From positions 576,001 to 640,000 of the forward strand of contig CAWEJX010000007.1 of the NCBI GenBank assembly GCA_963809485.1: a stretch of DNA of 64,000 bases, written 5' to 3'. The notes beneath the pieces were generated by a model. It searched no databases, was not told the DNA's origin, and saw only the letters and a list, made by a program, of their open reading frames with translations. The DNA comes from an uncultured Acidobacteriota bacterium. GTDB lineage: Bacteria > Acidobacteriota > UBA6911. The number at the start of each line of letters is the position of its first letter. Within the stretch, counting starts at the first letter, position 1. Positions 5,041 to 64,000 of the stretch are shown one piece after another. Made by a program: the position numbers and the translations under genes.

Positions 5041-5286
5041 TGGGGTCGGACCACGTTAAATCACGCATATTAAAGTGGAAAGGTGCAATTTTGCAGGCTC
5101 AAATGGGCCCCAAAACAGAATTTCTGGGGGAGGATTTGGGACTGCTAGAAATCAGGGATTTCTCCAAATAAAATAAAAATCTATAAACGCAAAAAATGCC
5201 TCCCCAACTTGCAGCTAAGCCTTGTTATAGGTGCTGAAAATTGTGTTATCAATAATCCTGCGAAGGTTTTATCGTGGTCCGACCCC
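5041..5286. mobile_element. MITE-like ~246-bp element, copy 2
   Basis: GGGGTCGGACCACG ... CGTGGTCCGACCCC is a perfect 14-bp terminal inverted repeat; same orientation as, and diverged from, 3522-3764. Confidence 0.75.
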
Positions 5287-5363
5287 GACTTTCCCCGACT
5301 TTGACCCCGACTTTAAAATATTTTCGCTCAAAACACCATGCCTTCATCTATAGTTTCTGAGCG

Positions 5364-7172
5364 ATGGCGGAAAATATCGAAGCGGTTTTGCATAAATACT
5401 GGGGATTCGACAGGTTCCTTCCTCTGCAGAGGGAGGCCATGGAATGTGTCTGCGGGGGGCGCGACTCCATCGTTGTCCTGCCCACCGGTGGAGGGAAATC
5501 CTTGTGCTTTCAGGCACCCGCCCTGCTCCTGCCGCACCTGACGCTTGTCGTTTCGCCGCTGATTTCGCTGATGAAGGACCAGATCGACTCCCTGCTGGAG
5601 TGCGGCGTTTCCGCCGGCCGGCTGGACAGCACGATGTCCAATCCGGAAAGGAATGAGGTCTTCGAAAGACTGCGCGCGCGCAGGCTGAAACTTCTCTACG
5701 TGTCGCCGGAACGGCTCCTGATGCCGGGATTCCTGGATTTCCTGAAGGGCCATGGGATCTCTTCCGTGGCCATCGACGAAGCCCATTGCGTCAGCATGTG
5801 GGGGCACGATTTCCGTCCGGAATACCGCCAGCTCAGCATTTTGCGCGAGGCGCTGCCCGGGATCCCGATCGGCGCCTATACGGCCACGGCGACCGAGCAG
5901 GTCCGGCGCGATATCGCCGGGCAACTGCGGCTGGATCATCCGGAAATCCTGGTCGGCGGGTTCGACCGCCCGAATCTGATATACAGAGTGCGACGCCGCA
6001 CGAATGCCCTGAAGCAGATACGCGATGTGCTGGATCGTCACCGGGGAGAATCGGGGATCATTTACTGCATCCGGCGGGCGGATGTCGATGAAATGACCCA
6101 GGCGCTGTCGAGTCACGGCTACCGCGTCGCCCCGTATCACGCCGGCATGACGGACGACGACAGGAAAAAAAGCCAGGACGCTTTCATCGACGAAGAAGTG
6201 GATATCATCGCTGCGACGGTGGCTTTCGGCATGGGCATCGACAAATCCAATGTCCGGTACGTGGTCCACGCGGCGATGCCGAAATCGCTCGAGCACTATC
6301 AGCAGGAAAGCGGACGCGCGGGACGCGACAGCCTGGAAGCCGAATGCCATCTTTTCTATTCCGGGGCCGACTACCTGATCTGGAAACGCATCCTCGAAGA
6401 ATCCGAAGAGCAGGGCGCCGAAATAGGCGTTGCCAAGCTGGGGCAGATGTACCGCTATTGCAGCGGCGTCACCTGCCGGCACAAGGCGATCCTCGGCTAC
6501 TTTGGCCAGCAGCCGGCCAGCGAAAACTGCCGGGCATGCGATATCTGCCTCGGCGAAGTGGAAGGCGTGGCGGATGCTCTGACAGTGGCGCAAAAAATAC
6601 TCTCCAGCGTGATACGCCAGGGCGAACGCTTCGGCGCGGACTATACGGCCGGCGTGCTGATCGGCTCGCGCGAAGACCGCATCCTGGCCAACCATCACGA
6701 TCAGCTGAGCACCTACGGCCTGCTGAAAGATTCGTCGCGCTCCACCGTGCGGGACTGGATCGAGCAGCTTACGGAGCAGGAGTGCGTGGAGAGAGTCGGC
6801 GAATACGGAGTGCTGAGGGTCACCGACAAAGGCCGCCGCATGCTGAAAGGCCGGGAGCAGCCGCTGCTGCTGGAAGCGGCAAAGAAGAAGCCGCCGAAAC
6901 CCGTGATCGAGAAAGAATCGTGGGAAGGCGTCGACCGGGCGCTTTTCGAGCAACTGCGCCGCCTGCGCCGCAAGCTTGCGCAGCAGCACTCCGTGCCTGC
7001 CTATATCGTGTTCAGCGATGCCACGCTGCGCGACCTGGCGAGGAAACGCCCCTTGACTCCGGCCGCCTTATTGGGAGTTTCCGGCATCGGCATGAAAAAA
7101 CTGGAACAGTACGGGGAAGAGGTGTTATCAGAAATAAGGCGGTATTGCGGCGCAAAAGCGGATGAAATTTGA
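5364..7172 (+). CDS. recQ: ATP-dependent DNA helicase RecQ
   Basis: LPTGGGKSLCFQ, DEAHCVSMWGHDFRPEY, QESGRAGRD, Zn-binding cysteines, RQC and HRDC domains. Confidence 0.97.
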   Translation: MAENIEAVLHKYWGFDRFLPLQREAMECVCGGRDSIVVLPTGGGKSLCFQAPALLLPHLTLVVSPLISLMKDQIDSLLECGVSAGRLDSTMSNPERNEVFERLRARRLKLLYVSPERLLMPGFLDFLKGHGISSVAIDEAHCVSMWGHDFRPEYRQLSILREALPGIPIGAYTATATEQVRRDIAGQLRLDHPEILVGGFDRPNLIYRVRRRTNALKQIRDVLDRHRGESGIIYCIRRADVDEMTQALSSHGYRVAPYHAGMTDDDRKKSQDAFIDEEVDIIAATVAFGMGIDKSNVRYVVHAAMPKSLEHYQQESGRAGRDSLEAECHLFYSGADYLIWKRILEESEEQGAEIGVAKLGQMYRYCSGVTCRHKAILGYFGQQPASENCRACDICLGEVEGVADALTVAQKILSSVIRQGERFGADYTAGVLIGSREDRILANHHDQLSTYGLLKDSSRSTVRDWIEQLTEQECVERVGEYGVLRVTDKGRRMLKGREQPLLLEAAKKKPPKPVIEKESWEGVDRALFEQLRRLRRKLAQQHSVPAYIVFSDATLRDLARKRPLTPAALLGVSGIGMKKLEQYGEEVLSEIRRYCGAKADEI

Positions 7173-56261: not shown

Positions 56262-56717
56262 ATGCAAACTCTTGAGCCTATTTTGGCACAACAGCCGTTT
56301 TTGCAGAACCTCGACTCGGAGCACTTGCAGCTCCTGGTCGGATGCGCTTCCAACGTTCGCTATGAAGCCGGGCAATTTCTGCTCCGCGAGGGGGAGGAGG
56401 CCAATGAGTTTTTCATCATCCGGAGCGGCAAAGTCGCTATTGAGATTTACTCTCCGGAACGCGGCCCGATCAACATCGAGACCCTTGGAGAGGGCGATGT
56501 GCTCGGCTGGTCCTGGCTGGTGTCTCCTTACCTGTGGCGTTTTGATGCGCGGGCGATAGAGCTGACCCGTGCCCTGGTTTTAGATGGCAAATGCTTGCGC
56601 GGTAAATGTGAAAGCGACCACCATCTGGGATACGCACTGCTGAACCGATTCGCGCATATTATCGATCGCAGGTTGCAGGCAACCCGAATCCAACTACTCG
56701 ATATCTACCGTGCATGA
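56262..56717 (+). CDS. Stand-alone cyclic-nucleotide-binding domain protein
   Basis: [28 protein letters not shown]; no HTH. Confidence 0.9.
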
Positions 56718-57570
56718 GGAAAAGCTTAGGATGAAAGACCGGGCGCCGGAGCCGATGCTACCCGAACCTTTTCGCATCGAGCGAATACTGAAAGAAACCG
56801 GAGACACTTTTACCTTTGAACTGGAACCCGCAAACGGTGCCGCGGGCGCTGCTTTTTCCGCCGGGCAATTCAATATGCTCTATATATTCGGGATTGGGGA
56901 GGTCCCTATCTCGATAAGCGGGGATCCGGGCAAATCCGGCCGTATGGTTCACACCATAAGAGCCGTCGGCGCCGTAACCAAAGTAATGCGGGCATTGAAA
57001 CGCGGCAGCGTGATTGGCCTGCGCGGGCCTTACGGTAAAGGATGGCCAATTGAAGAGTCACGCGGCAACGACATCATAATCATTGGAGGCGGCATTGGGC
57101 TTGCCCCGCTGAGGCCGGCTTTGTACCGACTGATTTCCGAAAGGGAAAAGTACGGCCGCGTCATCCTGCTTTATGGCACGCGCACGCCCGCGGACATACT
57201 TTTTCACAACGAGTTGGAGCGCTGGCGCGGGCGTCTCGATCTTGATGTTGAGGTAACCGTTGACCGGGCAAACATATCCTGGCGCGGACACGTGGGAGTC
57301 GTCACGACTCTTATTCCCAAAGCTTCCTTTGATCCTCTGCAAACGACCGCTTTTATCTGCGGCCCCGAGATAATGATGCGCTTTACCGTGTTGGAACTCG
57401 AAAGGAGAGGAATCCCTTCGGAGAATATCTATTTATCGCTGGAGCGCAGTATGAAGTGCGGCATTGGACTCTGCGGGCACTGCCAGTTGGGACCCTACTT
57501 CATCTGCAAGGATGGCCCGGTGTTCTGTTATAACAAGGTCAAGAGCTTAATCGCATTGCGGGAAATCTAG
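56710..57570 (+). CDS. Group 3b hydrogenase gamma subunit (FAD/NAD-binding, 2Fe-2S)
   Basis: [37 protein letters not shown]. Confidence 0.92.
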
Positions 57571-57571
57571 C

Positions 57572-58351
57572 ATGCCTCGAGCAAAAAAACCCAAGCTGGC
57601 CTTCTGGAAATTTGCATCCTGTGACGGCTGCCAGATGACGCTTCTCGATTGTGAAGACGAGTTGCTTGCTGTTGCGAGTGAAATTGAAATCGCTAATTTT
57701 GCCGAAGCCACGAGCACCTTTATAAAGGGGCCCTACGACATTTCAATTGTCGAGGGATCCATTACCACACCCCAAGAGGAGGAGCGTATACACCGCATTC
57801 GCCGCTCATCCAAGTTCCTGGTGACCATTGGGGCATGCGCCTCCAGCGGAGGGATACAGTCTCTGCGCAATTTTAAAAACGTCCAGGAGTTTGTTTCTAT
57901 AGTCTATGCGACCCCGGCATACATTGAGACGCTCAACAAATCCACGCCGATGAAAGATCATATTCCTGTGGATTTCGAGCTACAGGGGTGTCCTCCGAAC
58001 AAATATCAGCTTCTGGAAGTGCTATCGGCATACCTGCATGGGCGGAAGCCGATCACTCCTCCCTATAGCCTGTGTCTCGATTGCAAGAGCCAAGGTATTG
58101 TCTGCGTCATGGTTGCCAACGGTATTCCTTGTATGGGCCCGGTAACCCATGCGGGCTGCGGCGCCCTATGCCCCTCGTATCGCCGCGGATGCTATAGTTG
58201 TTTCGGACCTAAGGAAACACCCAACACGGGCTCGCTGAGCGCATGGTTCAGCTCGCTGGGAAGGTCGAACCAGGATATTATCCGGTCTTTCCGCAGCTAC
58301 TATGGGTGGACTGAACCTTTTAGAAAAGAGAGTGAAGCGCTTGAGAAATAG
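57572..58351 (+). CDS. Group 3b hydrogenase small (delta) subunit
   Basis: SCDGCQ, VEGS, GACA, GCPP, C-terminal Cys cluster. Confidence 0.92.
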
Positions 58352-58465
58352 GCAGACGGGCGTGAATATGAGGCGCGCGACAAAGTGCAACACTGCACGG
58401 GCGACCGGCCGCTCGCCCGTCGCAGTAGAAGGCTTGTGAGCAGTGCGCTTTTAAAGGCAAATTGC

Positions 58466-59752
58466 ATGAAAACCGTTAGCATCAAGATAGATTACCTTAC
58501 GCGGGTGGAAGGTGAAGGCGCACTGCGCGTCAAGATAAAGGAAGGCGCAGTGGAGGATGTGCAGTTACGGATCTTCGAGCCGCCGCGCATGTTCGAAGCA
58601 TTTATGCGCGGCCGCCACGCCTTTGAAGCTCCCGACCTTGCAGCGCGGATCTGCGGCATCTGCCCGATCGCCTATCAAATGAGCGCAGTCCATGCCGTGG
58701 AAGACGCTTTTGGACTGAAGATCGACGGCCCAATCCGCAATTTGCGCCGGCTGATTTACTGCGGGGAGTGGATTGAAAGCCATGCGCTGAGTATTTATAT
58801 GCTACACGCGCCCGACTTTCTGGGTTATCCCGGCGCTTTGGAAATGGCTGGGAAATATCCCGAGGCTCTGAATCGCGGCTTGCAGCTGAAAAAAACAGGA
58901 AACGAAATCGTCGCGCTCCTGGGCGGACGCGAAATCCACCCCATTAATGTCCGCGTTGGAGGTTTTTATCGGTCACCGGCCAAGCGCGATCTAGCAAAGC
59001 TCGCCGAACGCCTTAAATGGGCTCGAGAAGCAGCGCTTGAAACCAGCCGCTGGGTTTCAGCCTTTGAGTTTCCGGATTGCGAGCGAGATTACGAGTTCGT
59101 TGCGCTCTCACATCCGAGCGAATACCCGCTGAATGAGGGGCGCATGGTCTCTAATAAAGGTCTGGATATTGAGGCGTCCCGATTCGACGACTACTTTGCA
59201 GAGGAGCACGTAAAACACTCTACGGCACTTCACTCGGCGATTATCCAGCGAGGGTCCTATTTCGTAGGTCCGCTGGCCCGTTTCAATCTCAATTTTGACA
59301 AGCTGTCCCCTCTTGCGCGCGAGGCCGCCGAGGCTGCCGGAATGAAGCCTCCCTGCCACAATCCTTTCCGCAGCATTATCGCGCGCGCTGTTGAAATTCT
59401 ACACAGCTGCGATGAAGCGCTGCGCTTGATCGAAAACTTTGAAATGCCGGAAAAGCCCGCGGCGGAAGTTCAGATTCGAGAAGGCATAGGATACGCCTGC
59501 ACCGAAGCCCCCCGCGGCGTTTTGTATCACCGCTACCGCATCGACAACGAGGGCAACCTTCTCGACGCCAGGATAGTGCCGCCAACCTCGCAAAATCAGA
59601 AGTCCATCGAAGAAGATCTGCGGCAGTTCATCCCCAGGTATTCGAATCTGCCAAAAGAGAAGATCACGGCATTTTGCGAGCATGCAATACGTAACTATGA
59701 TCCGTGCATCTCCTGCTCCACGCACGTGATCAAAATCTGGAATTCCATATGA
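58466..59752 (+). CDS. Group 3b NiFe hydrogenase large (alpha) subunit
   Basis: TRVEG, L1 RICGIC, EAPRG, L2 DPCISCSTH. Confidence 0.95.
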
Positions 59753-60044
59753 TTCGAGATCGAGAATTTTCAGCTTGAGCCGCAGAAACTATCTGCTTTC
59801 AGCAGAAGTGTGGGGAAATTCCCGTATGGTGAATATTCTTCGCCGTGGATCAAATGCGCTATTTCCGCAGGTTGTCATCAGAATGGCGGGACCTGTTCGG
59901 CCGATCTCAATAGACTGACGGACGAATTCTGGATACTGGGGAGGAAAAGGACCGGATTAACCATTTGGTTCCTCGGCCATGCATGGACGGCTGTGCACAC
60001 GATCAGGCTGCTCCCGAACGGCTTCCGTGATGAATCGACCGAGG

Positions 60045-60296
60045 TCATGCAGCTTCGCGGAAATAGTAACGCTGCAGTCCACCGAGCCGTTGCCGGCACA
60101 CGACCTCACCGGCCCTCTCGCCGACTTCCCTCCCAGGAATCAGCAGCCGGTTGCCCACCCCCTGATGGTTGCGCTCCGTAAGAAAATGATCCACATAGCT
60201 TACTGTGGCGGCATGGAGCGATTTCTCTCCGAAGAAGATCATGCGCTCCAGGCACTCCTCCTTCAGGCTTCGCATGAACCGCTCAATGTGCGCACT
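60045..60296 (-). pseudogene. rve/DDE transposase, 3' part (interrupted)
   Basis: AHIERFMRSLKEECL...ERNHQG...RLGGLQRYY. Confidence 0.88.
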
Positions 60297-60646
60297 GGAA
60301 AAAGCCATCAACTGCGAAGTATTCGACAGAACCGCAACGATTTTTCACAGTAACGCATCCCTTCCATCCTCTTCATAACCGCCGGTTCGAGCTGGTTGCT
60401 TGTAGGCCAGCCTGGGGTGAGTCCAGAGTGTACTTCTACAACGAAGAGAATTGCCTTATAGCGATACCAACTGCATGGACCGATGCGGCAGCGCCGGATC
60501 CGTTCGTAGCCATTGCAGCGGGCAGGGCCTGCTTCCGCACGGAAGATCTCATTCAGCTCGCAGAGCTGGTGACGTTCTGTAAAAGCAAAATGCCCAAGAA
60601 AAGAGTCCGCGCAACATCTGTAAAGGAAAAGACGCCGCATGTGTAA
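60293..60646 (+). CDS. DUF5372/Y4bD-like protein, lacking its start in the integrated state
   Basis: Frame open from the junction: HWKKPST...VTHPFHPL...WGESRVYF...IPTAWTD...DPFV..AAGRACFR..DL. Confidence 0.75.
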   Translation, partial: HWKKPSTAKYSTEPQRFFTVTHPFHPLHNRRFELVACRPAWGESRVYFYNEENCLIAIPTAWTDAAAPDPFVAIAAGRACFRTEDLIQLAELVTFCKSKMPKKRVRATSVKEKTPHV

Positions 60647-60794
60647 GAGTAATATCGCCGCATATCCGTTGTGCGCATCTGCAAACATTATTGATGGTAT
60701 GCGCATGATATGCTTGATAACGGCTAGCGTACGGTTGATGTCAACACGATTATCCTTGACATGCGGAGAGGAATAAGGCGTATATATTATTACA

Positions 60795-61265
60795 ATGAAA
60801 AAACAATTGCGCACAGCCGACCCAAAGATAAAAGCACTGAAACAGCAAGGAACCCTGAATCCTCATCCCGAACGGGTAACCGATTCACTCTTCCTCGAAA
60901 GCGAATTCTTCAATGCACGTGACGTAGTTCAGGTCAAGTACGAGATGCTGCGGCGGGTCGAAGCCGAGGGGAAGTCGGTGACTGCCGCTGCTGCCGCCTT
61001 CGGCCTCTCACGGCCAGCATTTTACCAAGCTCAGTCAATCCTGCGGCAAGATGGCCTTCCCGGGCTCATCCCCAAAAAACGGGGTCCCCGAAGTGGTCAT
61101 AAGCTTAGCGAAGAAGTCGTCGATTACATTGAGGCGGCCCGGGCTGCAAGCCAATCACCAACTGTTTCGGAGTTGATTTCCCTGGTCACCGAGCGCTTTG
61201 GCATTAAAGTTCACCGTCGCACCGTTGAGCGCGCCCTGCGCCGGCGGGAAAAAAAACAGCTATGA
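60795..61265 (+). CDS. Helix-turn-helix domain protein
   Basis: GTLNPHPERV...QVKYEMLR...FGLSRPAFYQ...GLPGLIPKKRGP...HRRTVERAL. Confidence 0.85.
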   Translation: MKKQLRTADPKIKALKQQGTLNPHPERVTDSLFLESEFFNARDVVQVKYEMLRRVEAEGKSVTAAAAAFGLSRPAFYQAQSILRQDGLPGLIPKKRGPRSGHKLSEEVVDYIEAARAASQSPTVSELISLVTERFGIKVHRRTVERALRRREKKQL

Positions 61266-61579
61266 AAGCCAGAAGGCAAGTTGATCAGGGACCTGATGCA
61301 CTGATGCGGATCAAAACGGCATACGAAAAACTGCGCAAACAGGCAATCGATCAAAGTTGTTGCACTCAAGGAGAACTTGGACTTGCCGTCTTGAAGTATC
61401 AAGGATTGGCGGCATGGATCGATGCGTGGTGGACCTATGCGAGCCCGGTTGTCCCTGAAGGCGCCGACAGCAAAATGGCTGACGACTTCCTTCCTGCGGG
61501 ATTACAGGGCGACATCGTAATGGTACTGTCGAGTATGGTTTTCCATGCGGCATCCACAGAGGTGAGCTATGGCGAGTGA
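61262..61579 (+). CDS. Hypothetical protein of the recombinase element
   Basis: Overlaps both neighbouring genes; YEKLR...GLAAW. Confidence 0.7.
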   Translation: MKARRQVDQGPDALMRIKTAYEKLRKQAIDQSCCTQGELGLAVLKYQGLAAWIDAWWTYASPVVPEGADSKMADDFLPAGLQGDIVMVLSSMVFHAASTEVSYGE

Positions 61580-63650
61580 GGGGAATCAGAAGATCCGGCC
61601 GATCCACGTTCAACGGAATGCCTATTTGTACATACGGCAATCGACGCTCCGACAGGTTTTGGAAAATACTGAAAGTACAAAACGCCAGTATGCCTTGAAG
61701 CAGCGCGCAGTTGCGTTGGGATGGCCCCAGGAGCGTATCATTGTGCTGGATACGGATCTGGGCCAATCAGGCGCAGCCGCTGCAGACCGCGAGGGTTTCC
61801 AAAAATTGGTGACCGAAGTTGGGTTAGGGCATGCAGGCTTGGTGATGGGTTTAGAGGTTTCTCGCCTTGCACGAAATTCGGCCGACTGGCATCGGCTGCT
61901 CGAAATGTGTGCACTGAGCGATACACTCATACTGGACGAGGATGGTATTTACGATCCGGCGCACTTTAATGACCGCCTGCTGCTCGGTCTCAAAGGTACG
62001 ATGAGTGAAGCCGAACTGCACATGCTTCGGGCTCGGCTTTTGGGCGGTATCGTGAATAAGGCACGGCGAGGTGAACTAGAGTGCCCACTTCCCATTGGTT
62101 TCATCTACGATGCAACAGGCAAAGTCGTGATTGATCCCGACCGGCAGGTTCAGGAGAGCATCCGCATGTTCTTCCGGACTTTTCGTCGTACGGGGTCTGC
62201 AACAGCAACAGTGAAAGCGTTTCGAAACAAGGGCCTGCTCTTTCCACGACGAGCCGATAATCATCAGAAGGGAGACTTGGCGTGGGGCCCCCTTTTACTC
62301 CATCGCGCCTTATGGCTGCTGCACAATCCACGCTTTGCGGGAGCATTTTTCTTTGGGCGTACTCGACAGCGCAAGTATGGCTCTAATGTTAGCAGTAGGA
62401 AATTACCGCGGGAGGAATGGATTGCGTTTATTCCCAATGCGCATCCGGGCTACATTTCTTGGGACGAATTCGAACAGAACCAGAAATGCCTGACCGAAAA
62501 CTCGGCGGCCCACGGCACCGACCGCCGCAAGAGCCCGCCAAGAGAAGGTCCTGCTTTGTTACAGGGGTTGGTGATCTGTGGAGTATGCGGCCGGCGTATG
62601 ACGGTTCGTTATCATGGTAGGAGACAAGGACTTCAGCCTGACTATGTGTGCCAGCGCGAAGGGATAGAACGCGGAGAGAGGATTTGCCAGCATATCCCGG
62701 GAGCGAATATCGACGAGGCTGTAGGAGCTCTTCTGGTTGAGGCTGTGAGTCCCATGGCTCTAGAAGTGACGCTGGCAGTGCAGCAGGAATTGCAGACACG
62801 TCTGAGTGAAGCAGACGCACTGCGAAAAAAACACGTCGAGCGAGCTCAGTATGAGGCGGATCTTGCCCGGCGGCGTTTTCTCCGTGTAGATCCAGAGAAC
62901 CGGCTTGTAGCTGCCTCACTTGAGGCTGAGTGGAACGAGAAACTCCGAGTGCTCGATGAGCGACAGCAAGAGTATCAGCGGGAATGCGAAAGGGATCGGA
63001 AGCTCCTTGATGAAAAGACAAGCACGCAGGTTCTTACTCTTGCAAGTGATTTTCCCAAACTCTGGCAAGATCAGCGGACAGAGGACCGCGATCGAAAGCG
63101 AATGTTGCGGCTCTTGATCGAAGATGTGACTCTTATTAGGAACAAAGAAATCAGCGCCAGTGTCCGCTTCCGAGGGGGAGCCACCAGGATACTGACACTG
63201 CCTCTTCCGCCTCCGGCATGGAAGATCCGGCAGACCAGTCCTGAAGTGCTCGCCGAGATCGACCGGCTGCTCGACAACCATACGGACTCGGAGATTTCCG
63301 TGATTCTCACCGAACGCGGATATCGCTCAGGCGAGGGAAAGTCCATTAATCACGCAATGGTCTACCGTCTTTGCCGCGAGTATGCAATGAAAACACGATA
63401 TCAACGACTCCGCGATCTTGGGATGATGACAGTTAATGAGACAGCAGCCAGACTCGATATCAATCCCGGAACGGTCAAGAAGTGGAAACGTGGAGGTTAT
63501 CTACACGCCCACTGGTACAATGACCATTCTTATCTCATCGAACGTCCTGGAAACAATAGGCCGCTTAAGCACAAGAGAAAACCGGGATGCTATCGATCAA
63601 AGGCAGAAAGAGCGACCCAAATTACGCATGAGGTGCAGTATGAAGCATAA
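61569..63650 (+). CDS. Large serine recombinase (resolvase, recombinase, Zn-ribbon, C-terminal HTH)
   Basis: YIRQST catalytic Ser, D.G.SG, EVSRLARN, CGVCG, DPENRLVA..LE..WN, C-terminal EVQYEA; 693 aa. Confidence 0.95.
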   Translation: MASEGNQKIRPIHVQRNAYLYIRQSTLRQVLENTESTKRQYALKQRAVALGWPQERIIVLDTDLGQSGAAAADREGFQKLVTEVGLGHAGLVMGLEVSRLARNSADWHRLLEMCALSDTLILDEDGIYDPAHFNDRLLLGLKGTMSEAELHMLRARLLGGIVNKARRGELECPLPIGFIYDATGKVVIDPDRQVQESIRMFFRTFRRTGSATATVKAFRNKGLLFPRRADNHQKGDLAWGPLLLHRALWLLHNPRFAGAFFFGRTRQRKYGSNVSSRKLPREEWIAFIPNAHPGYISWDEFEQNQKCLTENSAAHGTDRRKSPPREGPALLQGLVICGVCGRRMTVRYHGRRQGLQPDYVCQREGIERGERICQHIPGANIDEAVGALLVEAVSPMALEVTLAVQQELQTRLSEADALRKKHVERAQYEADLARRRFLRVDPENRLVAASLEAEWNEKLRVLDERQQEYQRECERDRKLLDEKTSTQVLTLASDFPKLWQDQRTEDRDRKRMLRLLIEDVTLIRNKEISASVRFRGGATRILTLPLPPPAWKIRQTSPEVLAEIDRLLDNHTDSEISVILTERGYRSGEGKSINHAMVYRLCREYAMKTRYQRLRDLGMMTVNETAARLDINPGTVKKWKRGGYLHAHWYNDHSYLIERPGNNRPLKHKRKPGCYRSKAERATQITHEVQYEA

Positions 63651-64000
63651 GCACTCAAATTCGGGGATCGTGCCGGCAGGCGGAGCGGCTTCACTCCGAC
63701 ATCCTCAAACGTGCCCCGGAACGCTTCCGAGAATTTCGTGTCTCGGTCCATCAGCAAGTATCGATTGCCACGAAGGAATCCGTCATCGGCGTCAGTCACA
63801 TTCCTGGCAACCTGAAGCAGCCAGGCTTCATCTGGATTGGTGGTGAGACCAGCAAAATGAATCCGTCGGGTTGCAATCTCCATGAAGAACAGCAGATAGT
63901 ATGTAACCAATCCCTTCTTCGTCCAAATCCCGATCGCTGTGAAATCAACCGAGGCAAGCATATCCCAGTGTGTGTTGAGGAATTCCTTCCAGCTGCCCTG
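63651..64000 (-). pseudogene. rve/DDE transposase, upstream part (runs off the window)
   Basis: LASVDFTAI...YYLLFFMEIATRRI...YLLMDRDTKF...LPARSPNLSA. Confidence 0.9.

Follow-up and report, generated by a model that had tools for sequence, protein, structure and literature searches.

A large serine recombinase element at the catalytic motif of an Acidobacteriota transposase gene, and the codon-level target rule of its family

The window analysed here is a stretch of 64,000 nucleotides from an uncultured Acidobacteriota bacterium (GTDB lineage Bacteria; Acidobacteriota; UBA6911), taken from GenBank assembly GCA_963809485.1, contig CAWEJX010000007.1, positions 576,001 to 640,000 of the forward strand. 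Towards its right-hand end, an antisense transposase gene of the DD35E (rve) type is split by a 3359-bp element that lies between two copies of GCACT (60297–63655, plus strand, counted with the right-hand CT). The extent of the element is supported by two genomic copies and by metagenome contigs in which precisely these 3359 bp are skipped. It is very probably an intact member of a widespread insertion sequence (IS)-like family of 3.3–3.4 kb and four genes, in which the targeting of transposase genes is driven by the family's own recombinase.

All four genes are carried on the plus strand. The body of a DUF5372 gene (60299–60646) matches the Pfam DUF5372 profile over positions 1–74 of 78 (E = 5e-26) and is followed by a gene for a 156-aa helix-turn-helix (HTH) protein (60795–61265; HTH_28, HTH_23 and HTH_32), a 105-aa open reading frame (ORF; 61262–61579) that overlaps both neighbouring genes and has no Pfam match, and a gene for a 693-aa recombinase (61569–63650). 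In the recombinase, the Resolvase catalytic domain is N-terminal (PF00239, residues 18–169, 67 bits) and is followed by the Recombinase and Zn_ribbon_recom domains, which represent DNA-binding domain 1 (DBD1; PF07508, residues 194–311) and DBD2 (PF13408, residues 330–386), both above cut-off; residues R23-Q24-S25 are invariant among 23 aligned family members. By its catalytic domain, DBD1 and DBD2, the enzyme is a large serine recombinase (LSR). Pfam searches detected no DUF4368 domain in the recombinase at E ≤ 0.01 and no DDE transposase among the ORFs of the element. Relatives were collected with a protein-guided scan of one genome per species, which found at least 547, and the best 80 were kept; the recombinase was detected in all 80, the HTH protein in 79, DUF5372 in 74 and the small ORF in 37 (the last at E ≤ 1e-5).

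The two GCACT copies define the junctions. The left copy (60292–60296, plus strand) would represent attL, with CT at 60295–60296 as the putative crossover dinucleotide, and the right copy (63651–63655, plus strand) would represent attR, with the corresponding CT at 63654–63655. The element's left end (60297–60330, plus strand), delimited with an nhmmer left-end profile, the family consensus and dyad analysis, and its right end (63628–63653, plus strand), where relatives have a conserved GAGGTGCAGTRTGAAGCRTAR, would form the two arms of attP in a circular form. Within the left end, ACTGC at 60311–60315 is a remnant of the family motif GTCRACTGCACC. The right end is densely occupied, with a Shine–Dalgarno-like GAGG (63630–63633), GCAGT (63635–63639), an ATG (63640–63642) and the stop codon of the recombinase gene (63648–63650).

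The host transposase gene is read on the minus strand on both sides of the element. Its C-terminal fragment (coding 60045–60296, in a 3′ part of the host IS that spans 59884–60296 and shows identity to a second genomic copy from about 59884 onwards) opens with SAHIERFMRSLKEE, includes the catalytic Glu and matches rve_3 with 29.2 bits (cut-off 26.5). The 5′ part (63656–64000, with the outer IS extending past the window to about 64632) ends in ...LPARSPNL at the junction; this broken N-terminal fragment scores 22.7 bits against rve, below the cut-off of 32.6, with a match over profile positions 8–102 of 102 that stops 2 aa before the junction. The distance from the second Asp (LLMD) to the Glu of HIER is 35 residues, as in other DD35E enzymes, and the break therefore falls four residues before the catalytic Glu, in agreement with an earlier sequence-only reading of the window that had placed the insertion just before the DDE glutamate. 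Local alignment of the presumed ends of the host IS gave no convincing terminal inverted repeats.

The same reading had predicted an empty site encoding R-S-P-N-L-S-A-H-I-E-R. Deletion of 60297–63655 restores this frame on the minus strand, and the predicted string also exists as uninterrupted DNA in a related genome from the same taxonomic family and another genus (locus L088) and in two metagenome runs. At L088, the host IS is 93% identical, uninterrupted and furnished with one GCACT, and its open 325-aa transposase frame reads SPNLSAHIER. The metagenome contigs, which come from two runs of two studies (wetland, 1127 nt; freshwater sediment, 297 nt, with 0–2 differing letters), join 60291 to 63651, so that exactly 3359 bases are skipped with 5 ambiguous letters and a single GCACT is left; the freshwater-sediment run also contains pieces of the element. 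The window offers natural attL and attR sites, and locus L088 offers a natural attB.

A second copy of the element lies in the same host IS on contig C20 and shows 2 differences in 3359 bases. The flanks of the two copies are identical for 223 bp on the left and 376 bp on the right, beyond which the host-IS copies differ at about 33 positions, including frame-shifting indels. Past the window end, at 64030–64250 (about 5230–5450 of locus L001), the copies are set apart by indels and clustered substitutions within the N-terminal transposase region; the host transposase on the window's contig (C7) is frameshifted here and would therefore be inactive even without the insertion. A blastn search of this genome found no empty host-IS copy. 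The only other paralogue of the recombinase in the genome is a distant LSR (C8:594815–595705; 41% identical over 302 aa).

The best 80 relatives share 58–70% identity, belong to many phyla and often occur in multiple copies per genome, and many of their contigs are 3.3–3.6 kb long and consist of the element alone. Both ends could be placed in 64 relatives (L077, with a misplaced left end, was excluded), and in all 64 TT is the sole sequence repeated at both junctions. Their right ends read GAGGTGCAGTRTGAAGCRTAR, then NCC, then TT, and their left ends start with GG and carry GTCRACTGCACC about 11–22 nt inward; TT aligns with the position of CT in the present element. In the nearest relative identified, whose right end shares 83% DNA identity with this one, TCC-TT stands in place of GCA-CT, and an otherwise unrelated metagenome copy ends in GCA-CT beside a different flank; GCA is thus part of the element end. 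Because the five-base identity of GCACT cannot place the crossover, CT is assigned only via the relatives, and by this homology of the ends it is the probable crossover dinucleotide.

The symmetry of the ends points to the same dinucleotide. In the virtual circle junction, GCAGT and ACTGC each lie 14 nt from CT, as the sequence-only reading had described, and the element's own arms are complementary at 9 of 22 positions when centred on CT, compared with 3–7 at centres shifted by 1–5 nt. A symmetric run of at least 5 was obtained in 125 of 20000 arm shuffles and at least 9 matches in 537 of 20000; taken by itself, the 5-bp inverted repeat is modestly unlikely by chance. Among 41 non-redundant virtual attP sites of the family, the mean complementarity is 11.3 of 22 positions (2.4–7.9 at shifted centres), and dyad positions 15, 17 and 19 are complementary in 95–100% of these sites. 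The GCAGT/ACTGC pair occupies positions 15–19, the best-conserved dyad positions of the family ends. The expectation of a 2-bp serine-recombinase crossover is accordingly matched by the relatives, both in the family-wide duplication of TT and in a dyad centred on that dinucleotide.

A further regularity emerges when the insertion sites of the family are mapped, a check that the sequence-only reading had proposed with enrichment in rve motifs as the outcome to look for. Targets were rebuilt as empty sites and read opposite to the recombinase strand, which places the dinucleotide at codon positions 1–2. At 46 of 47 non-redundant sites (<90% identity over 62 nt), the codon encodes Asn (17), Lys (29) or Ser (1, the present element) and is followed by a Glu four residues later; L072 is the single exception. 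The recurrent motifs are GNPWD^NAACESFMKTLK, SPQA^KGRVERGF, RGNE^KGRVERxIRY, KPRD^KAKVEV, SPWQ^NGVAERW, HPQQ^NGRHERMH and SPNL^NAxxERF, where the caret marks the junction; we take the first three to be IS3-like, IS481-like and IS21-like, respectively. Pfam rve was matched at E ≤ 1e-3 by 33 of 59 flanking N-terminal fragments (17 above the curated cut-off), while 14 match transposase-type HTH domains only and 12, mostly short, are unmatched. Most rve matches extend to the last profile position (102 of 102), 2 residues short of the junction. In tblastn alignments, host transposases only 25–58% identical to the present one are broken at the same residue, and on a Paraburkholderia plasmid the RefSeq annotation itself has an IS21 istA gene split around a copy of the element. 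At all rebuilt targets, the element runs antisense to the transposase that it interrupts. The earlier suggestion of parasitism on a conserved, multicopy mobile gene finds support in the codon rule and the rve flanks, and it applies to the family as a whole.

At the DNA level, the 47 attB sites share only about seven bases, namely TC of the Glu codon, C at −2, TT, and GG of the Pro codon. The rebuilt target sites contain no dyad, and inspection by eye of positions −3 to −1 revealed no rule of attP–attB covariation. What is conserved in the target is largely the protein motif P-x-x-[N/K]-[G/A]-x-x-E, encoded by otherwise degenerate DNA.

A further property of the ends concerns the DUF5372 gene, which spans the circle junction. 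In the integrated element its frame is open back to the left end and contains no ATG, GTG or TTG before a GTG at 60428; the ORF that starts there covers profile positions 28–74 only, compared with 1–74 of 78 for the frame from 60299. Once the ends are joined in a virtual circle, DUF5372 is in frame with the ATG at 63640, which has GAGG just upstream. In all 65 two-ended elements, including this one, the frame stays open for at least 70 codons through the virtual junction, from a start codon 14 nt before the dinucleotide (ATG in 45, GTG in 20), and a Shine–Dalgarno-like motif lies upstream of that codon in 62 of the 65. The junction core CC-TT-GG codes for Pro-Trp in relatives, and CAC TGG codes for His-Trp here; because the core and the end motifs encode DUF5372 residues, part of the end conservation is coding sequence. 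Insertion would separate DUF5372 from a Shine–Dalgarno sequence and ATG at the opposite end of the element, and because its start is available only across the circle junction, the full protein could be produced solely from the circle. The DUF5372 gene of the related element on plasmid pNGR234a is annotated from an internal GTG, and the split may therefore not silence DUF5372 in every relative.

The AlphaFold model of the DUF5372 product (predicted local distance difference test, pLDDT, 82) consists of a five-stranded barrel followed by a helix. A Foldseek search against the PDB returned no match at E ≤ 0.001, and the weak best matches (E 9e-3 to 0.1) were small SH3-like barrels (NdhS, PsaE and eS4), which give no clue to function. 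Modelled as a complex with the recombinase, DUF5372 gave a score of 0.71, compared with 0.00 for the best control; among reference cases, 58 of 80 solved complexes and 2 of 110 mismatched pairs attained this mark, counts that are rough given the use of custom alignments. Between runs, at least 85% of contacts recur, and the partner pLDDT is at least 67. On the recombinase, the modelled interface comprises residues 336–341 (the CxxC region of the zinc ribbon), 392–412 and 479–539 (the feet of the presumed coiled coil). The DUF5372 product is thus predicted to bind at the zinc-ribbon/coiled-coil junction, and recombination directionality factors (RDFs) have been reported to bind the DBD2–coiled-coil junction (PMC12286644). 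DUF5372 may provide a circle-specific control of direction or of target capture.

These properties can be assembled into a mechanism in which the recombinase would excise the element as a circle, whose joined ends would form an attP with imperfect inverted-repeat arms around a 2-bp crossover (TT in most relatives, CT here). The recombinase would then recombine attP with a site inside DD35E transposase genes and duplicate the dinucleotide alone. Read in reverse complement, this dinucleotide would supply positions 1–2 of an Asn or Lys codon (AGT, Ser, in the present case) that precedes the catalytic Glu by four residues. What the sequences themselves show is where the element begins and ends, that an empty site occurs naturally, that 2 bp are duplicated throughout the family, that its ends form a dyad and that its targets follow the codon rule.

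Other explanations have to be weighed against this recombinase-driven targeting. The nesting could be a historical accident, with one old insertion copied along with its IS and no target preference of its own; in favour of this, both genomic copies occupy the same site of the same host IS with identical near flanks, and the genome has no empty host-IS copy. However, 46 of the 47 distinct sites, which lie in IS3-, IS481- and IS21-like and other transposases, obey the codon rule, and empty sites are found in nature. In addition, the flanking frames mostly remain open for 200–320 codons, which argues that the family's insertions are recent and separate. We judge the accident to be contradicted and give it very little credence. 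The 5-bp direct repeat around the element could also be read as a target-site duplication from a DDE-type cut-and-paste or copy-paste transposition, but the element contains no DDE transposase and its relatives duplicate 2 nt only; moreover, the TCC-TT of the closest relative and the GCA-CT of an otherwise unrelated family member beside another flank are at odds with GCACT as duplicated target. Such an origin is very unlikely.

Within the framework of serine recombination, strand exchange might take place at GC, CA or AC of GCACT instead of CT, given that attL and attR share all five bases and that the metagenome joint is ambiguous over the same 5 letters. The alignment of CT with the sole duplicated TT of 64 of 64 relatives and the dyad axis on CT make these alternatives unlikely. 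The remaining alternative, which treats GCAGT/ACTGC and the conservation of the ends as coding and translation signals only and not as recombinase binding sites, deserves somewhat more attention, as the right motif includes GAGG, the ATG and the recombinase stop codon and the left motif falls within DUF5372 codons. Coding constraint, however, predicts no reverse-complement symmetry about the crossover, whereas positions 15, 17 and 19 pair in nearly all of the 41 sites and a shift of the centre by 1 nt destroys the symmetry; the peptide encoded over the left motif also varies while its nucleotides are kept. Signals of translation are therefore an improbable, though not negligible, account of the whole pattern.

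Several points nevertheless weigh against the recombinase-driven interpretation or temper it. The case for recombination is comparative throughout, and among the assembled Logan metagenome contigs aligned, no circle (go-back) joint was present. For the second genomic copy, gene conversion or homologous exchange is a likelier origin than another integration event, and because the pattern of the copies fits this better, the genome itself adds no independent evidence of targeting. Taken alone, the element allows any dinucleotide of GCACT as the crossover. Because the end motifs double as coding and translation sequence, for the C-terminus of the recombinase and for the Shine–Dalgarno sequence, ATG and N-terminus of DUF5372, their conservation is not proof of protein binding sites. 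The 80 relatives analysed are the best matches and not a random sample. The degeneracy of attB, which an LSR would have to read, is a difficulty for the model, and an RDF-like protein made from the circle only would, on the phage model, hinder integration.

The CT core has a counterpart in the target. Among unoccupied copies of the host IS family in related genomes, the junction codon is AAT in 6, AGT in 4, TCC in 1 and ACG in 1; the nearest (L088) has AGT and an 84%-identical one (L089) has AAT. Because unoccupied relatives of the host IS, including the nearest, carry AGT at this codon, CT is native to the target. We hypothesise that an Asn-to-Ser change (AAT to AGT) hides the IS from TT-core elements and that the CT core is a counter-move. 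Given the match between CT and AGT, escape and pursuit by single-base changes would seem open to experiment.

Variation in the core is also seen elsewhere in the family. When metagenome contigs were scanned for right ends of the family whose core is not TT, at least 120 stretches matched, and 80 of these loci (L110–L189) comprise 73 with AT, 6 with CT and 1 with GT. Some AT-core copies adjoin ...GATLAEI^, with weak DUF3489 matches, every one of which stops at position 27 of the 68-position profile, and others adjoin ...WL..GVxxVA^, with sub-threshold matches to the N-terminus of DEDD_Tnp_IS110 (E 0.003–0.009), which suggests AT-core sub-lineages aimed at other mobile-element genes. An AT-core relative also lies upstream in the same host IS at L088 (L088:2560–2760, genome G017), in sense orientation at DV^IEYLL, with a right end reading ...GCATAATCC-AT. 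A broader scenario would combine a dinucleotide arms race (escape by AAT-to-AGT change, pursuit by CT), sub-lineages whose dinucleotide and arm recognition were re-tuned to conserved coding motifs of various mobile-element genes, with TT serving for DD35E transposases and AT for an IS110-like N-terminus and for DUF3489, and DUF5372 as a novel partner in directionality or target capture; we regard this combination as speculative and, on present evidence, rather doubtful.

Additional observations were made on individual relatives. In genome G017, a fragment of a closer relative (L084:1500–1800) retains the last 264 nt only, 83% identical, and ends in ...CATAATCC-TT beside an IS21-like flank with RAGNQ^ encoded on the opposite strand. 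L018 and L019 have a common right flank (SPQA) and differing left flanks (KGRVERGF and NATCESFMK), and at L040 an SPWQ N-terminal fragment is joined to an IS21-like KGKVERQIQY C-terminal fragment. Recombination between element copies in different ISs, with genome rearrangement, would explain these chimeric flanks; misassembly is the alternative. Homologues are found on 533 plasmid records, mostly rhizobial, under the plain annotation 'recombinase family protein'. In the window itself, three plus-strand ORFs lie upstream of the host IS (56710–59752), which we take, by translation alone, to resemble an oxidoreductase FAD/NAD subunit, an Fe-S small subunit and a NiFe-hydrogenase large subunit (DPCISCSTH end).

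LSRs are valued because two short DNA sites suffice for their action, and one specific attB is usually assumed. A natural family with at least 47 attB sequences offers a system for studying how LSRs are re-aimed. The family is a clear case of a mobile element living on other mobile elements, disabling the host transposase at its catalytic motif. Its gain would be a landing site that is safe, present in many copies and itself spread horizontally; the element may also ride along when the host IS is moved in trans. Our literature searches found no description of the family or of its target rule; compared with what is in print, the codon-level rule, the 2-bp geometry, the CT/AGT match and the circle-only DUF5372 gene with its predicted binding site appear to be new.

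Among known systems, the nearest counterpart is an element at 33.9–37.3 kb on plasmid pNGR234a of Sinorhizobium fredii NGR234, with the same order of DUF5372, HTH, small ORF and a recombinase of about 694 aa that is 53% identical over 668 aa to the present one. It has a related right end and TT at both junctions and lies antisense in a transposase at PQA^KGRVER; the present element differs in having GCA-CT instead of TCC-TT and a Ser target codon (AGT), and its DNA is far diverged. The pNGR234a element is, we presume, the one called NGRIS-4, all copies of which reportedly lie inside other ISs. Gene order, end motifs and insertion into an IS all match, and on these features of sequence the present element is a member of the pNGR234a-type four-gene family. 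The IS607 family of small serine transposases offers a more distant likeness, being IS-sized and equipped with a serine recombinase and lacking terminal inverted repeats of the DDE kind; here, however, the recombinase has 693 aa, with the catalytic domain N-terminal and the Recombinase and zinc-ribbon domains C-terminal, which places the element outside that family.

The clostridial transposons Tn4451/Tn4453 (TnpX) and Tn5397 (TndX) also rely on an LSR, pass through a circle, duplicate a 2-bp crossover and enter many targets, and Tn4451 has an expression signal that depends on the circle junction. Multi-targeting LSRs with a TT core have been described, with DUF4368 in 63% of the multi-targeting clade (Durrant et al., 2022; PMC10083194). 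Compared with that Tn4451/Tn5397-like clade, the present recombinase is without DUF4368 and the accessory genes differ. These elements are not known to aim at a protein-coding motif of transposases, and 'rve' does not occur in the main text of that paper; its supplements may list target families. The large serine integrases of phages (Bxb1, phiC31, LI and SPbeta) and their RDFs share the domains, the 2-bp crossover and the dyad attP arms with the present system, and a small partner at the DBD2–coiled-coil junction is a further likeness, for DUF5372 predicted only. Phage integrases use one specific attB of about 40–50 bp, whereas at least 47 attB sequences with about seven conserved bases are used here, and here the partner gene is split by integration. 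Set beside these systems, the element adds a member with a variant CT core to a group that is known but has hardly been described.

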